This document shows positions 9,492 to 43,611 of a stretch of DNA of 64,000 nt, in pieces. The stretch is from Conidiobolus incongruus B7586 (Eukaryota): positions 1 through 64,000 of the forward strand of contig JNEM01009691.1 in assembly GCA_000697335.1 (NCBI GenBank), in the 5' to 3' direction. Position 1 is the stretch's first letter. Every line of letters starts with the position of its first letter. The position numbers and the translations under genes were made by a program. The notes beneath the pieces were generated by a model, which was not told the DNA's origin, did no database searches, and worked only from the letters and a program-made list of their open reading frames with translations.

Positions 9492-10094
9492 TCAGTCATT
9501 TTCTGGTGGAGAGTTAGGTAATTTTGACAAGCTAGATATTTCAAGAGACTCAGGATTTTGTGGCAGGGTAGTTGTTGGTGGAGAATTAGGTTTTGGCAAC
9601 CCCTTATCCACTGGTAATGAATTATTTGCCTTTAGTGATTTAGACTTTGGAGACATCTTATCTTTCTTTGGACGCTTAGGTCTTGGTGGATATTTTGCTT
9701 GGTAGACGCCAGACTCTCTAAGAACTTTATGCACAGTTGTTTTGCCAACATTAATATCTTTAGCACGAAGTTGTTCACTAATTTGCTTCAAGGACAAATC
9801 TTTTCCATCTTGCTTCTGACTAAAAATAGATAAAATTTCTTGTTTGATAGAGTCTGTGACTATTGAAGGTCTACCAGAAACGGGTACATCAGTTAAATGT
9901 TCATCGCGAAGTTTCAGAGGTTTGCCTTCAGGATCAAAACCACGTTGAATTGCTTTGGAATAAATTCGACTCACATGACTTTTAGAGACACCAGTTATCT
10001 CCGCAATCTCATTTATTGACATTTCAGTACGGCATTTGAGTACTACAACGGCAGCTCTTTGAGCAATATCAGTACGAGCTCCATTTCTATCCAT
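9492..10094 (-). CDS. Tc1-type transposase-derived paired HTH DNA-binding protein lacking the DDE domain
   Basis: HTH1 (SINEIAEITGVSKSHVSRIY), GRP-type linker (SGRPS), HTH2 (SLKQISEQL...VGKTTVHKVLRESG), then a basic NLS-like stretch and Pro/Ser tail. No DDE domain or TIRs seen. Confidence 0.7.
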   Translation of the reverse strand: MDRNGARTDIAQRAAVVVLKCRTEMSINEIAEITGVSKSHVSRIYSKAIQRGFDPEGKPLKLRDEHLTDVPVSGRPSIVTDSIKQEILSIFSQKQDGKDLSLKQISEQLRAKDINVGKTTVHKVLRESGVYQAKYPPRPKRPKKDKMSPKSKSLKANNSLPVDKGLPKPNSPPTTTLPQNPESLEISSLSKLPNSPPEND

Positions 10095-11002
10095 GTTAAG
10101 TACAAAATGGAAACTAAAATAATTCGAAAAGTTTAGAGATTTAAAGTAATATTATTAAATGAACCGAACGCTTACAATAACACTAATCGATTGCGAAAGT
10201 GAGTTTGAAACCAGTCCATTGACCCATAAATTTATATTGGTGTGATTGGCTCAATTTCATTTTATTCATAATTTTTGGACATTGATTAGAATCTGAATAT
10301 AACGAACAAAAACAATTTTGTAATTTTGCGTCAGCAATCAACTTGAACTGATTAAATTTTTATATATCTAATTAAAATAAATTTCATATTTAAAGCTCCT
10401 TAACATATATTCTTTAATGAATACGTTGAATGATATACTACGGATCAATGTTTAAAATTATAATATAATATATCAGAATATCCATCAAATTCGAAATAAA
10501 AGCATTTTACAATACATAAAAATACATATATGTATTTAATTATCAAAGTATTACAAATTTTATAAAACCATACATCAAACTGTAATTATAAAATTGGTTG
10601 CATTTCAAAATACTGCAAACTTTTATTATATACCAATATGCTTAAAATAATTAATGAAAGTGCACTTTTAAATAATTTAATAGTTTCTTAATAATCACAA
10701 TGAAATAATACAAGATTTGAATTCTTATTATATCACATTATTCTTATTACGTCTGCGAAATTAATCCAAACTAAATATATTACTAATTTATTTCAAACTA
10801 ATTTACAGATAGTATTCAATCACAACACTTGTTATCATAACGAACATTAGATCATGATACTTTATTAACCAATAATTGTGATCAAATAATTAAAAATGAT
10901 ATACTAGTGTTTCGAGCATATGTGACATCCTAAGAAAGTGGCAACAAGTATATTATATAACTGGTCAATTTAATATAATTTGACTAAATTTACAATCAGA
11001 AA

Positions 11003-11006
<4 letters not shown>

Positions 11007-11040
<34 letters not shown>
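11007..11040. repeat. (AT)17 microsatellite
   Basis: Direct reading. Confidence 0.95.
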
Positions 11041-11044
<4 letters not shown>

Positions 11045-13041
11045 GTACATATTATACATATTCAGTGACAATTTTAAATAAAATTGAAAACTCAATAATA
11101 TTGTCAATTATATAGCTTTTTAATTTGGAAGATGATTATTATATATTTTTGATCTATTTATTATTTAATATTTAATAATATTGATAATTTAATATAAATT
11201 CATTCAATTATTCGAATTATCTTTAATTGAATTTAAATAGGAAATGATTATCTATACACATTAAATTATATATTTCAAATTTTTGTTTTTGAAGGTTATT
11301 AATTTGTAGAATGTCACATATTTTGGTGTGAAACTGATAATGCAAAATTTAGCACATCTTTTTATTATCCAATTATTATTCAATAATTAACTTGGAATTC
11401 ATTATTCAATTGATTCACTACTTAAAAAAATATAAATCAACTCAAAAATCTTGATAAACATTTGGAGAAAAAATAATAAAATGTCAATACGTATATATAT
11501 ATTATAACAGTATAACAAGGTATTAAAAATTTTTCACATATTATTTTAATTGAAAATTTTATCATATTTGATTTAATTTCCTTTAGTTTTATTTAACAAA
11601 GCTATACACTTTGTTCCATATATAATTCATATTTTCAATTATATATTGAGTAATATAAAAATAATAATTAATTTTTGTTTATTTAGTTTTATCAACCCAT
11701 TATAATTTAATAAACGACAATTATTGATCAGATATACTAATTTATATTGATTTTGGTTTGAAAATTTAAATGGTGATTAATAATATAAATATATAAAGTT
11801 TAAAGATTAAATTAAAAAGCTTCAATTTATATAACTTGAATTTTCTTTAAAAAATCTTTAAAGTAGGTATTGATCAAAAATTCAACAAAAGATCTTTTTT
11901 CAATATGTATAAATTTAGTTTAGAAGATATATTTATCAACTCTTAAAAATAAATAATATTTGTACCAAAACCAATTAATAAAAATATCATCAAATCTTGA
12001 TCTAAATAATATTCCTATTAATGTTTAGTATTAAGTCTACACTACTATTGTTCAAGGAAATTATTATGTCAAGTATAATTATTATGTATTAAAGGATTTT
12101 AAATTTGTAGGTTATAATGGAGAATTGAATAAAATTATGTATCTTTGAAAAATCAAATATCAAATCATAATTCAGATTGTAAATCCTCTATTCGACATAA
12201 GCTGTTGAACACAATATGGGATTGATTTAGATATAGCTAGAGTATCTGATTTGAATATATATACTCCTTTAAATTAAAATCAACAGAATATATTGATATT
12301 ATGGTTGTTCAATATATTAAACTAATAATCAATAATCTGATAATAATCATTTGCCAAATATTACTCTTATTCATTTTCGAAATAGTAAACCATTAATATA
12401 TTATTATCAAGATTCATATGATTGATTCTAAATAAGGTATTCCCTTTTTTGAACTCCAACAAATTATCAAAAAAGGTTAATTTTTTGATTTTATTAGCTT
12501 TAATATATAATATACAATTATACAATTATTAACTTCAATATCTATAATTGAAATATTTATTTTTATAAGTAATATAAATCTGCTTTCAAACTCTAAACTG
12601 ATATATTTAGTTATCTTGAAAATATTAATAAATGGGAATATCTCATTTAAAAATACTAATATATAAAAATAACAGTTAAATTTAAAGATATAGCAATATT
12701 AATTTTTGAGAATTAGTAACAGAACAGTTAATTGTAAATACTAGTATTTAAAAGAAGATTTAATAAAAAATGAGCTATGTTTATAATATAGTTATATCTC
12801 TCTTATTATTATATAACTTTCAAATTACATCATATGACGATTGAATATATAATAACATAATCAATTTAAATTTATAATGTTGTTAATTTCAACAAAGGAT
12901 TTTAACTTAATTGTTTAAAATTGTAAATTTAATAGATTATCAAAGTGCAAATCTAATCAAATATAAAATTAATTTAAATAGGATGTAATGAACTTAATTT
13001 CAATATTTTTTAATCTATAGTTTTAATATAATATTATTATA

Positions 13042-17629: not shown

Positions 17630-19177
17630 ATGTATTTAAAAACTTTATTTATTCAACTTCTACTTAGCCTGGTGTGTTCTGAAACTCATGTGGATAGTTA
17701 TAATGATATAGTTTTACCACAAGTGCGCTCTGACTGCCAGAGTAAAAAATGGGTTGATATACTGGTGCAATTAACACCGCCCACATATCCAAAGATCCCA
17801 TCAAATGTGGATTGGGCTCAAATGGACCATGAGCGCTGGTTTAGTCACAATGTTTTGCCCAAAATCATCAAGCACTGTGACAAGGACAGGAGGCCCGTCG
17901 TGGATAAACTCGAGCAATTCAGACGCATGGGTAAGGTCCATCGAGTCCAGCCCTACTACATCACCAATACTCTCGCAGTTCGATGTACGCCGGATGTGGT
18001 TGAACACCTTGCAGGCATGGATAACGTCAATGAAATCTCTTCCAACAACTGGTTCCGCATCGATTCTTTGTCTAGTGGAGATGAATCTGAATCGAGCGCC
18101 GGAGATGCTGACTGGGCTGGAACTTCTCCTCACTGGAGTTTGGAGTATATTAATGCCGCCTCTATTTCACCGGATATTTATGAAAATGCAAGTCTGCTCA
18201 GATATGCGAATGCGGACACTGGAGTAGATTTTGACCATCCCGCTCTTATTGAAAATTACATAGGTAATAATAATGGTCACATCAATCATGACCATGCTTG
18301 GTATGATGCAAACAAAATCCAGAATGTGACAAAGCCAAATGAGATTTGCGGCATTAATTCTCAAGTACCATGTGGTGACGATGACCATGGAAGCCATACA
18401 ATGAGTACGGCAGTGGGTCGCATGGGACTAGGAGTTTCTCCAACCACTAAATGGATGGCTTGCAAGAACATGGACCAGAATATTGGATCTCCAGAAACTT
18501 ATCTAGGGTGTCTACAATTCTTTTTAGCTCCTCATAGGCGGGATGGTACTGATCCCAGACCTCATTTAAGACCTCATGTTGTGGGGAATTCGTATAGCTG
18601 TGGGCCTTCAGAAGGATGCTCACCAAATACATTCGGACATGCTTTACAAGCATTGAAAGCTGCAGGTATACTTATGGTCGGTTCTGCGGGAAATAATGGA
18701 AGAAAAGGTTGCTCAACAATAAGTGACCCACCCGCTATCGATCAAAATCTTATATCAGTTGCAGCATCTAAGTATATGAGTAACGAGCGTGCCCCTTTCT
18801 CATCAATGGGCCCAGTCATTAGTCGTTCTTTTGCAATTGATATCACGGCGCCAGGAGCTAATATCACAGGAGCTGCCAAGGAAGGAAAATACAAGGTACT
18901 GCAAGGGACAAGTATGGCTGCACCCCATGTAGCAGGTGCTTCCTTGCTCATCATTGCTGCGTGCCCTCATCTATATCGTCACGTCGATGGAATTCGTGAT
19001 GTACTTCATCAAACAGCCACACCAATTTATCCTACAATGGGCTGTGGCAATGATGATGCAAATACACGGCCGAATAATGAATTTGGATATGGAATGCTGA
19101 ATGTTCAAAAGGCTATTGAAGCTTGTAGATCTCAGCCTGGATATCGACCAGGAATGCGACTGAATCCGACACTATAG
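17630..19177 (+). CDS. Secreted subtilisin-like serine protease (S8, bacillopeptidase F-like)
   Basis: Signal peptide and prodomain; catalytic triad ADTGVD (D codon 18215), HGSHTMST (H 18386), GTSMAAPHVAG (S 18911); oxyanion SAGN. Confidence 0.93.
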   Translation: MYLKTLFIQLLLSLVCSETHVDSYNDIVLPQVRSDCQSKKWVDILVQLTPPTYPKIPSNVDWAQMDHERWFSHNVLPKIIKHCDKDRRPVVDKLEQFRRMGKVHRVQPYYITNTLAVRCTPDVVEHLAGMDNVNEISSNNWFRIDSLSSGDESESSAGDADWAGTSPHWSLEYINAASISPDIYENASLLRYANADTGVDFDHPALIENYIGNNNGHINHDHAWYDANKIQNVTKPNEICGINSQVPCGDDDHGSHTMSTAVGRMGLGVSPTTKWMACKNMDQNIGSPETYLGCLQFFLAPHRRDGTDPRPHLRPHVVGNSYSCGPSEGCSPNTFGHALQALKAAGILMVGSAGNNGRKGCSTISDPPAIDQNLISVAASKYMSNERAPFSSMGPVISRSFAIDITAPGANITGAAKEGKYKVLQGTSMAAPHVAGASLLIIAACPHLYRHVDGIRDVLHQTATPIYPTMGCGNDDANTRPNNEFGYGMLNVQKAIEACRSQPGYRPGMRLNPTL

Positions 19178-20227
19178 TTCATATATAACATTATTATCAA
19201 ATAATTCATCCTTTTAAAAAAGATAATAATTGATCATTAATAATTTTACTAATCTTGAGCTTTCATAATGTCAAACGTTTTTGTAATCAATAATAAAGTT
19301 TTAATATTGATTAAAATTATCTTTCGTTATGGTGATCTTTGTGATCTTTGATTATTCATAAGTTTTATAAACAAAAATAAAATTATTATGTTTGGCTAAT
19401 ATTGATACTTTATGTTATATACATTATACAAATATAATTATAAAATTTGTTTAATGATTCACTATTAGCAGGTATTATTAATTTAATCAATTAATTGCTA
19501 ATAAACAATCAGAGAAATATATCAGATTTTTATTTTTGCTTGAGAAAAGATAATTTTTATTAAGATTTTGTTAATTGTTCAATATATCAATATTCCAAAT
19601 ATTTCTTGGCTCGCAGTTCAAATAGGATTTATAGTGCTGATCATCACAATCTCGAATTCCTAATTAATACGCGATTCATATTGCGAGCATATATCTCATT
19701 TTATACCTCCTTTTAAATATAAAAGCTCATCGTAATTAATAAAGAGTAATTTCATAGTCAAATTGATATGTGAAAGTATGGTTTAAAAACATAGGTCAAT
19801 TATTTACTATTAATAAATATATTTAACTTTTGGTTCAAAAATAAAGCTTTAACTGAACTTACAAAAGCAGCAATCACTAAAAAATTTTCTATTAATATAA
19901 AAGGTCAAATTTCAAATCTGCAAATTACCTTGATAACTCCATTCTTATTAATAAAATTGATCAAATTGAGTGTATGAAAAGATATAATTTCAAATCAAAA
20001 GTTAATAAATATCCTTGAAATCATTTTGATCTATTAATTAAAATGATTATATTATCAAACTTTATGCTTGATTTTTAAACTGTTTAAATACATCAATATA
20101 TCTTTTAATGATATAGATATTGACCTGTTAAAATAGCTGTTGATGCTTTTATTTCTTTATTACATGATTTAAATTTCAAGATTGATTAGAATAATATTCT
20201 AATTCTAAACATATAGATTAAGTATTA

Positions 20228-21511
20228 TTAGTATAGAAATTAAGAAATGGCAAATTTTTTAATTTCTGATCATTAACATATTATACATTTTGAAAGATTT
20301 TTTATATAAAAAATATATATGTAAATAAATAATTTCAAACTATATATATATTTAATTCTAATTATTTTTTTATTTAAATATTTTGATTTTAAAATTTATA
20401 GTTAAATTTAATTATATTTAAACTAAATATTGTTTATTAAAAGGCTTATATTTTTATATCTTTAAAACTTAATTATAAACCTTTTAATATCATTTAAGAC
20501 TTGTAAATAGCTTATGAAGATGATATTTTATTTAAAACTACTATATATTGTTAAATTTGTGATTTTAAAACTAAAAAGGATATTATTTAAAATTTATTAA
20601 AATCTAAAAGATTAATTTTAATTATCATTGTTTTATTTAATAATAGAATAAGTAAATATATTAATAAATATCTTTTATTTTAAATAAAGAATTATTAAAG
20701 CAATATAATATTAATTATACAAGTATATTATATATATTTAAGCTTAAATTTAAATTAATTAATAAAAATATAAAATAAATATCTTATAATTTAACAAAAA
20801 CTTAAAATAATTAGAGTAGCTATAATTAAACTAAACTTATTAAAATATAACTAAAAACAAAGGTTTTTATAATAAATACTTATAATTAATAAATTTTAAA
20901 TTTTTTTATATAATCTTTTATTTAAAAATAAAACAAGATATTAAATTAAATTAATTCTTGTTATAAATTTTAATAAATAAACACTTTAAATATAAGTAAA
21001 TATTAAATATTATAATATATTATAATGGTATATAGTTTTTTTATTTAATACCTCAAGCAAAATTAATATATAATAAATTATATATTATTTTTTTAAATAA
21101 AATAATTTTTAAATAGTATTCTTAATATAAATTAAAGATACTTATTATTTTACATGATAATTATAAATTATATAAAGTTAAAGCTGTAAAAAATTTTTTA
21201 TATAAAAAACTAGAAAGAATTACTATATTTAGTATATTTATTTAATTATAATGTATATAATTATAATTGTTTTAAATAATTAAAAAATTAACTTACAAGA
21301 AAAAAAATTCCTACAAAAAAATTAAATTAGTTTGTAAAATATTAAATTTTAGTCTTGGATAAAAAAAACTATTTTTTAAGTATTAGAAGCTTACTAAAAG
21401 TATAGAAAAGAGTTATTGATAATAAAAGAGAGTATTAATTTTATATTATTTATTAATTTATTTGTTTAATTTTAATTTTAAAATTGTGCCATTTCTTAAT
21501 TTCTACACTAA
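20228..21511 (+). mobile_element. Full-length but hypermutated mariner (DD34D-type) DNA transposon, 1284 bp
   Basis: 25-bp TIRs (20228-20252 TTAGTATAGAAATTAAGAAATGGCA vs 21487-21511, 24/25 match) with TA on both outer sides. Relic transposase motifs: D1 region at 20888, ILHDN at 21147-21161, W-ELPHPAYSPD..CDY at 21211-21264 and GIRSLP-VW-RVIDNKGEY at 21379-21435 after reversing transitions. Confidence 0.88.
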
Positions 21512-21750
21512 TAAATCTTTGAAATAAAAAGATTATAACTTTGAAAATTTTTGATAGTAGAATTTAAAATCTTAGAATATACTTTATAATGTCTATATAT
21601 AAAATGATCATTAGTTATATCAATTATTCCATTTTAAAAATTTATTAATTATAAATTTTTCAATTTGATATTATCTTCAAAATGTTATATAAAAGATAAT
21701 ATATGATTTGAAATATAAGCCTTAATTCTAAGTTAAAAATTTAGTATACA

Positions 21751-21891: not shown

Positions 21892-22281
21892 ATGACTAAA
21901 ACAATCAAAACAATAGGATTTTATATGCACCATATTTATAACGATAAAAAGAAGCGATTAATAATCAATTTAGCAAAACGATATGAATTAAATGGGCTAT
22001 ATAAATTTGGGAAACCTGGAAGAGTTATCGTTCAGTCTGATAACTATGACCATTTAAAACAATATACTAAATTGATCAAATCTCAAACCTGGCAATATTG
22101 CACCGTTTCTGCTCAACTCGAGTTTAATTTGACAAATTTTAATCATAACAAAAATGAAGTTAATATTGTTAAAGAATTTGATGGGTTTAAAGCTTGCGAA
22201 ACTGATAATGAAATCAAATCTGAGCTAATTAAAGTTGGTTTACTGGAATTTTGGTTTGAATTGACAGGCTTCAAAAATTAA
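21892..22281 (+). CDS. Stand-alone DUF1115 (RWDD2 C-terminal) domain protein
   Basis: GFYMHHIYNDKKKRLIINLAKRYELNGLYKFGKPGRVIV...LIKSQTWQ matches the HHI...K...A..L.L.G....GKPG...W pattern of RWDD2/DUF1115. Confidence 0.75.
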   Translation: MTKTIKTIGFYMHHIYNDKKKRLIINLAKRYELNGLYKFGKPGRVIVQSDNYDHLKQYTKLIKSQTWQYCTVSAQLEFNLTNFNHNKNEVNIVKEFDGFKACETDNEIKSELIKVGLLEFWFELTGFKN

Positions 22282-26359: not shown

Positions 26360-26973
26360 GAGATATGATGAGAATGACAACTATGAAATGCTCTTCAATA
26401 ATTTAAATGAATAAAAAATACACAAGAAACCAATATTTAATACATGCAATTCAAATCAGAAAAAATTAAAAAAGTTCAAATTACGTCGGAATATTAATGA
26501 TATTATACCAAGTCTCTTACACTTAAACGCCATAAAACTAAGAATCTTAATTAGAGATGTGGATTTAGTAGGTAAAATTTGTTTAGTTTGAAACGTATCA
26601 AATTTATCAAAATTGATTAATTTAAATCTTATTAGATCATTCAATATATAAATATTCATTTACCATAAAATATTGATTATTTTATGTAATGTAATGTAAT
26701 AGATATATTAAAATGTTATTAATTATTAATTTCAATTTCATTATTACAATCAAAATAAATCAAATTGAATCTAAACATTTCGATTGAATATAAAATTCAT
26801 TTTGAAAATATTTAATTTATGTTTTTTTAATGATGCTAAATATAAAATACAAGTAGAATAAGCTAATTTAAAGCTATTCGTATTACTTTAAATGAAAAAG
26901 TGTATTGATTACACCTTACTAAACCTTGATACAATTTACTATACTCCCATACATCTTTAAATTGAGTGTAAAA

Positions 26974-26974
<1 letters not shown>

Positions 26975-27010
<36 letters not shown>
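26975..27010. repeat. (TA)18 microsatellite
   Basis: Direct reading. Confidence 0.95.
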
Positions 27011-33268: not shown

Positions 33269-33900
33269 TTCATCAGTTGAAATCATTTGGTTGCATTTGA
33301 ATCAATAATAGTGATACTGATAGTATTAAAATATATGGGGAGAGGTAATACAATTCCCATCCTTTGTATTGTACTCGGGAATTCTTCAATCAAAACAAAC
33401 TATTCATTGGCCCATGTTCAAAACAGCGACGATATTTGATGATAGCTGCAAATTAGCCTTGAATTGTCAAGTTAATTAGCGAATGTTCATTGCATTAAAA
33501 ATGAATTAAACACAGTTGAGCTGTATCATTGGTCTTTTCCAGGTTTTAACTATACTAATTTGATCAGCTTAATAATGCGTATTATGGCAAGTAATGGTAA
33601 GAAGAAATAGGAGGAAATCGGATGATTTCATTCCATTACTTGTGAACAAGTGAGTGATCGGGTGGTTCTGAATGGAAAGAGTTGACCTATTATGGAGTCA
33701 AGTGAACAGTGTTACTGGATGGATAATTAATTAGAAATTACGTTTTTCATTCGTGTCTGATCAATTAAAAATTTTTGAGTATAAATTAAATCATTGTCAT
33801 TGAATTTGGCCTTGGATTGAATTTTTCTCTGATTTATTGAATTCGGCTAAAAGTGATTTTGGACCCTAGCCACTTTAATTCTTATATTTATTCTTCAATT

Positions 33901-34425
33901 ATGAAAGTTGCTAAATCTTCAGATCATCACGAAAGACACTTACCAATGAGCAATTTGACTAATTATCAAAAACGCAGAATATGTTCTTACAAGCTCGAGC
34001 ATCCTGACCTATCCCAGAAAAAGATAGCCAAGTGGGCCCAACAAGAGTTCTTCCTCGCTCATCCACCCTCACAATCATCCATCTCTCGTGCATTGAAGCT
34101 AAGGCCACTTCTCGAGAGAAGCTCTAGCTCAGAATCTCCTAGAAAGCCCAAGGTAATGACTTATACCGACCTGGATATGTCCCTAGCCAACTGGGTAAAA
34201 CGCTCTCAAAGTTATGGATACCACATGGATGAGGAAAGGATCATGGACAAGGCCCACGATTTCGCTGATGCTATGGAGCTATTCCCTCCCAACATCCCTA
34301 GCTTTGACTATGCTTGGGTGAGTTCGTTTATTCAGAGACACGAGATCACCTTGACTTCCACTCCGGAATTTTCTAGAGATCACTCAACTTCTTCCGACTC
34401 GCATAGCTCTCCTCGATCCTTTTGA
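33901..34425 (+). CDS. CENP-B/pogo(Tc5)-type double-HTH DNA-binding protein without DDE domain
   Basis: LTNYQKRRICSYKLEHPDLSQKKIAKWAQQEF....PSQSSISRAL (CENP-B N-terminal HTH) and LDMSLANWV...IMDKAHDFA...FDYAWVSSFIQRH (HTH_Tnp_Tc5-like). First ATG at 33901. Confidence 0.8.
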   Translation: MKVAKSSDHHERHLPMSNLTNYQKRRICSYKLEHPDLSQKKIAKWAQQEFFLAHPPSQSSISRALKLRPLLERSSSSESPRKPKVMTYTDLDMSLANWVKRSQSYGYHMDEERIMDKAHDFADAMELFPPNIPSFDYAWVSSFIQRHEITLTSTPEFSRDHSTSSDSHSSPRSF

Positions 34426-37400
34426 ACTATTCAACCAACCCTGCCGTTTATTTAATTCAAATCCTATCCTTTCTCACCCTCTATTCTCTCTAAGGAACTA
34501 TATGTAATCAGTACTATTCTTCACTATTATCAAGACAAGCTTCCCAATCTATCCATACCGGTTTATGGACCGGATCTACATTAGCAATGCTGGAATAAGT
34601 TGCATTTATTAAGTTATTACAATCAATTATGTTTTATAAGTAAATAAATCTACTAACAATGAATATATGTTTTCAGTATTCATCGATTTGCTCTCATATG
34701 TTGCAATGTCGTTCATTCAAGCGAATTCAGAGCGCCAATGAAAAAATTTTTCAATGTTTTCATTCGTGGGCAGTTGAATTGATTATTTTTCCAACTTCAT
34801 CTAAAAAACAAGTTAGATGGATGAATATTTCTAATTTCCTTATTAGGTTATAACAAATTTTTCTTCATCATGGATGACACCCCATCCACCAATCAGAATC
34901 ACTTTCAACCCAAAATAAAAATAATACTTAGAATGAATTAATTCCAATAATACATCCTTAATTCCATTTTTACCCGAATTGATGAATGGGTAATATCTCC
35001 AATTCTACCCAGGTATTCCTCAATTTTTTTTAATATTTTGATTTTTTCTAATAGTTAATTTTCTTGTGATCTATTCAGTAGTAGCATATCAGATGATTAG
35101 GTCAATTACTCTATGGATAGAAGCAGTTAGTATTGATATTTAGATTCAATGGACTAGACTCATATTATCAATTTAATCAATTGATCCTATTCATCATCTA
35201 TCCAAAGTAAAACATATTATACTAATTACTTGATAAGTTGTGCATAACTGATGAATGAGAATTATTTCTTAGTAATGGAATAAGGGATGTAAGAGAGCAG
35301 TGACATGATAAAATCACTCATTTAATTCATCTAGCCTGATTGATTTAGAACAATACTTGATTTAATCATAATTTCACTCCAATATAGCAATTCAAGAGCA
35401 ATCTTGAAAAGACTATATACAGTAGTATTTTATTTCATTATTTATTTCAAAAAATGAATCCAAATTATACAATATTATATCTTTCATTCAATATTTATTC
35501 TCTATAACTCCCAATGTAGTGAATATTATATATTATTAAATCCTTTAAATGGGGTTGTTAATTTATTATTGCTTAATTTGGTAATATCAAATTTTAAAAT
35601 ATGAAGAATATATCTAAATTATTTATTTTGTGATTTAACAATGTTGTAACAATTTAATAATTTTATTTTATAAAAGTAAAGAGATAATAATCTATAATCC
35701 GAATATATGTTTTGTAAAGAAATAGGATAGCTAACAAATTAAAAAAAATCGGATGAAATGGTATTTGGAATAATAATGAATAGGAATAATTCGTAATCAT
35801 TGAACATAGTATTCTCATGATATCATCTTGATGTAAAAATGAAACCATTATTCATTTAAATTAATTTGATTCTATTGATGGTTGTTATAAATTTTGTATT
35901 GTTTATTTTAACAATATGAATTAATAATTCAATATTTTCTAATTATCCGAATATTGAATTGTGAATTTATTAATAACAGATGAAATATAGATATATTGTT
36001 TTTATATTCAAGTTTTTGAATAAATTAAATTTAAGGATTATATTTTAATCCAATTTAATCAATATTTATTATCATATTATTTAGTTCTTTTTAATTGATT
36101 AAAGCTCTGAATTAATGTTATTATTAATTATATTAGTATTCAAAGTTGATTGAACTAAATTTTTTAATAAAAGGATTTTTAATACTAATGAGAATTTTAA
36201 AATATGTGACGTATTATTTGTAAATGATTCTTTGGTAATTCAATTCAATTAATCATAATTACATAAATTGTATTAAGAATGACTGATGAATTAACCTATT
36301 TTGATTCAATAATTTTGAAATTATTTTATTATTAATAAATTTTTCTTTTCAATGATTTACATAAATTCTCAGATTGTGGAAATTAGTTATTATTTCATTC
36401 CGAAAAATTTCATGCAAATGCAAAATTTCTTTTCCTAATAATTCCATTTCAAGATTTATATTATTAATTATTCAGTTTTCTGTAAAAATCATAACACATA
36501 AAAGATTCATTAATTCTATAAGTATATTATCATTATTTTTTTATAATTCAGCTCAATTATGTGATGAATAGAAAATACTTTAATTAATCGGTTTTACTAT
36601 AACTATACTTTGATTTTGATATATATTCAACAAATATTGCAGTTAAAATAGTTTTTTACACTATAATATTGAAAAATAAAATATATTTCAATATTGCTTA
36701 GATATCATATTTTGATATTGTAGTCATTTATTTATAATTTTAAAATTTAAAAATTCAATTTTATTTAAATAAAATAATGATATTCAATTAATTTATAAAT
36801 ATTTATACTTCTCTAATATTTGAAAAAATATTGCTGAGTTTTTCTATTGAATTATAAAATTAAAAAAAATATAATATTGATAAAGTATATGGATTTAAAT
36901 AAAATATTATATTAATTATACTCAATTACTTAAAAATATTTTATTATTATAATACTAGATTGAATATTTAATGATAATGCTATACCAATAGCATCACCAA
37001 TAATGATTAACATTAAAAATCGTATATATAAAATATGAATATTTTTAAGTAATTGAGTATAATTTTAATAATGATTATTTTTTTGCATTCGAATAATCAA
37101 TATACAAATTAATTTTGATGATATGTTAATATAAACAAAAGTGAGATTTTTTAGTGTTATAAAGTAATGAATATGTGTAAGTCATTCCTAACGTCTGATT
37201 TAATATTCAATTTTATGATAATTTCTTAATGATTTTTAATATGATATTTTATTTTATTTCACTATTATACAAATTGAAAATTTCAAATATAAATATAAAT
37301 TAATTGAATAAGATAAGCAATCAATAGATATATATTATATATAATGTGATTAGGTATTGTTTTATTTGAAAAGAAAATCTTCAATATTTTTTAATTTATA

Positions 37401-37835
37401 TTGTTTTTATAAAGATTAACGTTGCTTTGTGAATGGCGATTTTTAATATGTATATATATTCAATAGAGGCGAGCTAATCTAAAAAGTGTCTGGTATATAA
37501 ATTGAATATATATAATTAATATTGATAAATTATCAAAATACAAAACTCAAAATCTATTAATTGTAAGTGAATTTTGAAAAATAAAATATAAAATTAATGA
37601 TTATCTCACTTTGAACCAAATAAAATATTTTAAAAATATATACTTAATACTATTTAATGGTTAAATTCTATAATTTGCTAATATCAAATTCATATATATT
37701 GTATTAAAAATATATTAAACATTATATTAACTATAATAATGTAGTATTTTATACTATAGAAACTCTGAAATCATAATAAAGATTAGAATATTATTACATA
37801 CTGTGTAGCCATCATTAAAATATTATTATAAACTA

Positions 37836-37861
37836 ATATATATATATATATATATATATAT
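37836..37861. repeat. (AT)13 microsatellite
   Basis: Direct reading. Confidence 0.9.
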
Positions 37862-38196
37862 TATTTACTTATACAGATACAAGTATATTAGATACTCAAT
37901 TGGCTTAAAATTAGAGTTAAAAATATAATGATTATTATTTCAATACAGTTTGATTTTAATAAATTGAAAATTGTGTATAATATGATGATATTTTTAAAAA
38001 AGGAAAGTTTTATAAATTTCAAAATTATTAAAATCAATTTAATACATTAATAATATTATAATAAAATGAATTTAAATAACAGTGTTGATGACATAATTAT
38101 TAATAATGTGAAATGGGTTTATATTTAAATTATTTATTAGGAAGAATTTTATGAGATTAGGTTTAATGAAAAAAAATACAGGATATGGCTTAAATT

Positions 38197-43573: not shown

Positions 43574-43576
<3 letters not shown>

Positions 43577-43608
<32 letters not shown>
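43577..43608. repeat. (AT)16 microsatellite
   Basis: Direct reading. Confidence 0.95.

Positions 43609-43611
<3 letters not shown>

Follow-up and report, generated by a model that had tools for sequence, protein, structure and literature searches.

RIP-type genome defence is regarded as a trait of the Dikarya, and mainly of ascomycetes. In Neurospora crassa and other Pezizomycotina, RIP depends on RID/Masc1, involves the pairing of duplicated sequence and takes place premeiotically, within the sexual cycle. It changes C:G to T:A only, on both strands and at high density, leans towards CpA, destroys transposases at kept length and gives a positive composite index. The documented occurrence of RID/Masc1 is described as limited to Pezizomycotina (PMC5751038), and RIP-proficient taxa are reported to be almost all ascomycetes (bioRxiv 10.1101/2025.06.16.659975). 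According to PMC4352252, CpA/CpT signatures are tied to RID, with 90% CpA in Leptosphaeria transposons, and CpG signatures are tied to Masc2/DNMT1; the CpG (TpCpG) signatures of basidiomycete transposons are RID-free and methylation-linked. A further system is reported from Zymoseptoria tritici, where Dim2 drives mitotic C>T mutation at CpA in transposons, in a sex-free manner, and methylation follows the order CG > CA > CC (PMC8016269). In early-diverging fungi, repeats are reported as methylated in CG and CHH (PMC11258239).

For the Entomophthorales the literature conflicts. Stajich et al. 2024 (PMC11105155) give composite-index RIP for 24.2% of Zoophthora radicans and for 2.4–5.7% of three other Entomophthorales, with caveats and a call for validation; the idea of RIP-like mutation in this order, proposed there from composite indices, is therefore not new. 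The same paper describes two-domain cytosine methyltransferases in Entomophthorales, which according to its authors are not readable as RID homologs. A kingdom-wide k-mer survey reports RIP-like signatures in ascomycetes only and scores 8 of 8 Zoopagomycota, one entomophthoralean among them, as no-RIP (PMC12543289). In supplement 3 of that survey Conidiobolus coronatus, scored no-RIP, is given with 0 repeat matches of ≥1 kb at 95–100% identity and 555 at 80–95%, a profile expected of eroded repeats but also of an assembly in fragments. A search of the literature outside subscription papers for a direct report of such mutated elements in this group yields only PMC11105155 as relevant.

The locus described here, positions 20228–21511 of the window (the whole 64-kb stretch of DNA that was analysed), is a dead mariner DNA transposon of 1,284 bp with a GC content of 11%. 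Its parts and its two neighbours are listed in Table 1. The lone mismatch between the two terminal inverted repeats (TIRs) is a G/A transition, and a scan of the window tolerating up to 5 mismatches gives no second copy of the element end. DD34D mariners (Pfam PF01359 Transposase_1 plus PF17906 HTH) share with the element a length of about 1.3 kb, short TIRs and TA flanks, as well as helix-turn-helix (HTH), linker and catalytic regions in the same order. The element differs from them in being dead and without an intact relative in the searches made.

Table 1. Features of the element and of the adjacent genes, with positions in the window
Feature	Position	Strand	Basis
Left TA, likely target-site duplication	20226..20227	.	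flanking sequence
Left TIR, 25 bp	20228..20252	+	24/25 match to right TIR
5′ non-coding stretch and probable transposase start	20253..20437	+	single references align from 20420–20441
N-terminal helix-turn-helix relic, 83 codons	20438..20686	+	profile alignment
Second HTH and linker relic, after frameshift 1	20689..20805	+	conserved Trp column 20776, Pro column 20782
Relic following frameshift 2, including the first catalytic Asp column (20888)	20807..20953	+	profile alignment
Catalytic core relic following frameshift 3, including the unmutated second Asp (21156)	20955..21200	+	profile alignment
C-terminal catalytic relic following frameshift 4, including the third Asp column (21259)	21202..21438	+	TAA 21436–21438
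Right TIR, 25 bp	21487..21511	-	24/25 match to left TIR
Right TA, likely target-site duplication	21512..21513	.	flanking sequence
Left neighbour, intact S8 subtilisin gene, outside element	17630..19177	+	domain match, protein relatives, tree
Right neighbour, open frame with Prp3_C-type domain, outside element	21892..22281	+	domain match

An earlier, sequence-only reading of this DNA had reported the TIRs, the TA flanks and the length, all of which are reproduced here; the codons that it quoted from 21211 onwards are also found in the sequence, as is ILHDN, free of mutations, at 21147–21161. The 103 nt that it gave between the second and third catalytic Asp agree with the Asp columns of Table 1. 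Measured start to start this distance includes a frameshift, and 105 nt is expected for D34D. The spacing would fit D34D with a 2-nt loss, and D33D with a 1-nt gain is also compatible. The claim that length and most of the frame are preserved needs correcting as to the frame. There are four frameshifts, near 20687, 20806, 20954 and 21201 (alignments differ in their placement by as much as about 50 nt), and 24 of the 331 aligned codons are stops (19 TAA, 5 TAG and 0 TGA). The four frameshifts sit in A/T runs and could alternatively be assembly errors.

Genes are dense in the window and fungal in character (velvet, SNF5, Sec1 and dynamin are found), with Pfam matches in 17 of 20 frames tested. 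The best named relatives of the subtilisin to the left of the element are from Neoconidiobolus thromboides and Entomophthora muscae, at 48–62% identity. A quick tree built from 44 proteins places it within a 20-row clade (SH-aLRT 100), the named members of which are all Entomophthorales. This one gene likely places the host in the Entomophthorales, in line with the early-diverging fungus suspected from the sequence alone. The clade is an Entomophthorales-expanded one; its nearest outsiders are mostly metagenomic, with one named Chloroflexi and one chytrid.

Two intact genes with transposase-type HTH domains, at 9492–10151 (−, HTH_32 type) and 33841–34425 (−, Tc5/CENP-B type), are without hypermutation. 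No catalytic domain was found in either gene, and both are likely domesticated. A perfect 27-bp inverted repeat (36914–36940 and 37038–37064, spacer 97 bp, AT-rich, with 55-bp arms at 78%) may represent either a hairpin or a small MITE, and its region displays no CpA depletion. Intergenic (AT)n microsatellites are situated at about 110–140, 11000–11045, 26970–27010, 37830–37865 and 43575–43610.

The raw reading frames of the element are silent in standard searches. Pfam, with X at stops, gives matches in 0 of 6 frames; a word-indexed protein search gives 0 relevant among 618 candidates at E-values up to 10; phmmer against 1.84 billion representatives gives 0 matches, and raw-frame searches of solved structures (PDB) give 0 mariner matches. 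The element was aligned with a custom frameshift-aware aligner in which each codon is scored under a chosen mutation model. The profile consists of 73 mariner transposases, namely 66 of length 310–410 from the 120 homologs listed among 2,423 profile-search matches, and 7 loci. Fourteen mariner loci had been fetched with a mariner motif, and 3 of the 14 were omitted as too short. All 14 of these motif matches lie in bacterial genome records, mostly on short contigs, and encode pieces of mariner-type transposases; they are likely eukaryotic contamination of the assemblies.

Against this profile the element reaches 124 bits under C>T/G>A over 331 codons, from the HTH region to the C-terminus (124–127 bits across fits). 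One hundred dinucleotide shuffles of the element score 18.1±2.0 bits with a maximum of 25.5, and the best non-overlapping stretch elsewhere (97 window bins, both strands) scores 25.0 bits. With the same profile, the model with half transitions and half transversions gives 89 bits, the models with no bias and with T>C/A>G give 28 bits each and C>A/G>T gives 20 bits. The homolog search alignment included 2 window rows of 5, and the fit was therefore repeated with 7 references selected independently of the window, which give 66 bits, and with two halves of the homologs. Of 11 references aligned one at a time, 10 score best under C>T/G>A, the exception being L014, for which the reverse-transition model gives 28.7 vs 26.9 bits. 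The best single references, P0220, P0204 and P0227, reach 70–76 bits and are presumably irritans-like mariners. The element thus reads as a full-length mariner relic, as the sequence-only reading had proposed, and its back-translation by C>T/G>A changes alone held up in a hand check.

Protein searches and TIR scans of metagenome contigs reveal no close intact relative of the element. The TIR scans returned 0 and 3 matches, and the three were rejected as chance matches without a second TIR or a transposase. Mariner-motif scans of viral contigs returned 0 and 0 matches.

Since the searches found no close intact relative of this one copy, the substitution spectrum rests on the profile of distant transposases; it is estimated by a likelihood model that treats the ancestral codons as unknowns and uses the alignment obtained with the transition model. 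The per-site estimates are 0.69 for C>T/G>A, 0.035 for C>A, 0.025 for C>G, 0.000 for T>C and 0.06 for T>A, and the likelihood bounds place C>A at no more than about 0.10 and T>C below 0.02. About 328 changes are estimated in 983 sites, of which about 273 are C>T/G>A, and the ancestor would have had about 40% GC. The changes are balanced between the strands (about 135 C>T vs about 138 G>A), and the rate lies at 0.61–0.78 in all five segments. The 76 columns with the highest conservation include 53 at which the element differs from the profile; C>T/G>A alone reaches 32 of these and T>C/A>G none, while C>A/G>T reaches 6, C<>G 1 and A<>T 9 (the classes overlap). The spectrum is stable across three other profiles, one of the 7 window-independent references and two of homolog halves. 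Thus an estimated 70% or so of C:G pairs became T:A, on both strands, with other changes rare, and the one-way hypermutation described from the sequence alone is borne out.

The context of the changes is a different matter. They had been described as mostly CpA>TpA, which does not hold, and as of the Neurospora type, which is not supported in that form. CpA carries an estimated 35% of the changes at a rate about twice that of CpC and CpT, which are themselves about 58% converted. By 3′ base, the estimated conversion is 0.82 at CpA, 0.59 at CpC, 0.85 at CpG and 0.57 at CpT, with a likelihood gain of 11.7 log units. On the grid of ratios of CpA to CpC/CpT, values of 1.6–3 lie within the 95% likelihood range and 1.3 and 4 outside it; a ratio of 1 is rejected by 6.6 log units. 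Context-free simulations on real mariner DNA give CpA values of no more than 0.67 and gains of no more than 6.5 in 10 of 10 runs. In two unmutated controls the CpA estimate is 0.0. The lean towards CpA is therefore real but mild.

The remaining contexts are read with more caution. In an unmutated AT-rich control the model reports spurious conversion, 0.70 at CpG and 0.32 at CpT, and the CpT conversion of about 57% in the element may be inflated. A preference for CpG was dropped as a reading, the value of 0.85 standing against 0.70 in that control and 0.79–0.89 in simulations without CpG preference on the same template. No CpG remains in the 1,284 bp, and the CpG has been lost from 3 of 3 Arg columns for which CGN is the best reading. 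In this the element resembles the basidiomycete transposons with CpG signatures; however, CpG-dominated simulations fail to give its CpA excess (CpA no more than 0.58 in 10 of 10 runs). Four conserved Trp columns are now TAA, which requires a non-CpA change. There also appears to be an effect of the 5′ base (C after T 0.79, after C 0.76, after A 0.70, after G 0.52), with a likelihood gain of 5.4.

The C>T excess is confined to the transposon DNA, as the analysis of this one element against its flanks and the other low-GC DNA of the window supports. The composite RIP index is +0.43 for the element and no higher than +0.01 in 602 other overlapping windows of equal size. CpA/TpG per C or G is 45/141 (0.32) in the element vs 1595/3189 (0.50; Fisher p 3e-5) in low-GC DNA elsewhere in the window, and it is about 0.5 in the 200 bp flanking each side. 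Neighbouring single-copy genes had been called untouched on inspection of the sequence, and confinement to the element is upheld here. The outcome is RIP-like in that the transposase is irreversibly destroyed and the adjacent host genes are intact.

Within the element the TIRs are much less mutated than the interior, with 6 of 7 G/C sites retained in both, for which a rough estimate of chance is 2e-4. Retention of G/C and of CpA/TpG is far better at 20228–20302 and 21487–21511 than in the interior; in the 5′ non-coding stretch CpA/TpG is retained over the first 50 bp, and GC then goes down to 6%. The sparing of the TIRs could reflect edge sparing, transposase binding or later movement in trans.

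The likeliest cause, proposed with moderate confidence, would be a host cytosine methyltransferase of the DIM-2/DNMT1 type aimed at the transposon, followed by deamination of C to T. Silencing machinery would recognise the element, presumed to be multicopy, the methyltransferase would mark its cytosines, and the marked cytosines would deaminate and be fixed as thymine; neither RID nor a sexual cycle would be needed. By analogy, Zymoseptoria Dim2 could be the best model for how this mutation works, as it shares with the element transposon-restricted C>T change and a CpA preference (PMC8016269). The two-domain cytosine methyltransferases reported from Entomophthorales, not readable as RID homologs (PMC11105155), also point this way, as do the broad context seen in the Trp columns and a CpA conversion above that of the context-free and CpG-dominated simulations. 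The fit is imperfect, in that the Dim2-linked mutations of Zymoseptoria are described as specific to CA and not CG, with CT barely methylated (PMC8016269), whereas all contexts appear heavily converted in the element, CpT included; the no-RIP score of all eight Zoopagomycota (PMC12543289) also speaks against it. A true analogue of RIP, which ranks next but is rather unlikely, would sense duplicates by DNA–DNA homology during sexual development, when zygospores or resting spores form. A methyltransferase, either RID-like or co-opted, would act in bursts that over several rounds exhaust CpA and spread to other contexts. The one-way, two-strand and near-saturating C>T change, which leans towards CpA, stops sharply at the borders of the element and leaves the length intact, is what such a process would produce, and the spared TIRs are in keeping with it. 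Edge sparing is a trait of RIP, to which the sparing of the TIRs can be likened. However, the CpA preference is weak, the gain of 11.7 standing against 24–49 in 10 of 10 Neurospora-like simulations (with assumed rates), and there is no leakage into the flanks. The composite-index RIP in Z. radicans (PMC11105155) argues for such an analogue; the descriptions of RID as not demonstrated beyond Pezizomycotina (PMC11105155, PMC4352252, PMC5751038) argue against it. The element further differs from known RIP in a host outside the Dikarya and in a CpA share below that of Leptosphaeria transposons (PMC4352252).

Neutral decay, in which an old unselected element of 40% GC drifts untargeted to the AT-rich equilibrium of the genome, is already disfavoured and is held to be improbable. 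Other non-coding stretches of the window do fall to 8–14% GC over 400 bp, and the four frameshifts together with up to about 5% A<>T change indicate some age. But the other AT-rich DNA is CpA-rich (CpA rho 1.20±0.10 in 97 overlapping windows below 20% GC) and the element is CpA-poor (0.72). Moreover, ordinary AT drift simulated to a similar GC loss, under assumed spectra, leaves mariners unrecognisable at 14–44 bits in 15 of 15 runs (14–34 bits in 6 of 6 runs with transversions, 17–44 bits in 9 of 9 runs of transition-biased drift with back-mutation) vs 124–127 bits for the element. Little probability is likewise given to an interior mutated elsewhere, at another locus or in a RIP-proficient fungus, with the dead copy later mobilised in trans through its intact ends. 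Nearly intact TIRs around a saturated interior and untouched flanks would be expected of such a history, and frequent Tc1/mariner transfer between fungi is reported (bioRxiv 10.1101/2025.06.16.659975); a dead element, however, can pass between species only if the recipient supplies an active transposase that matches it, and no donor was found in the protein searches. Movement of a mutated copy within the same genome would leave the main conclusion unchanged. About as little probability is given to a methylation-independent cytidine deaminase (AID/APOBEC-like), acting for example on exposed single strands. It would suit the 5′ effect, with C after T or C changed more than after G, but both strands are equally affected in every segment, and a cut-and-paste DNA transposon has no long single-stranded stage.

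One-way C>T hypermutation confined to a transposon thus has direct support in the Entomophthorales, at the level of a single element. Stajich et al. 2024 (PMC11105155) make the same proposal for the same order from a dinucleotide index in 1-kb windows; the element adds direction, strand balance, context and a control within the window. Pfam, PDB and phmmer searches all fail to see the relic, which hints at how surveys could overlook such mutation. The element also lets dependence on RID and sex be set against DIM-2/DNMT1 methylation, and the hypermutation may bear on the large variation in genome size within the Entomophthorales. It is doubtful that this order has a RIP of its own, homology-triggered, RID-independent and outside the Dikarya, mutating repeats at CpA and other cytosines; if it does, repeat-directed hypermutation would predate the Dikarya or would have arisen several times from DNMT1/DIM-2 methylation.
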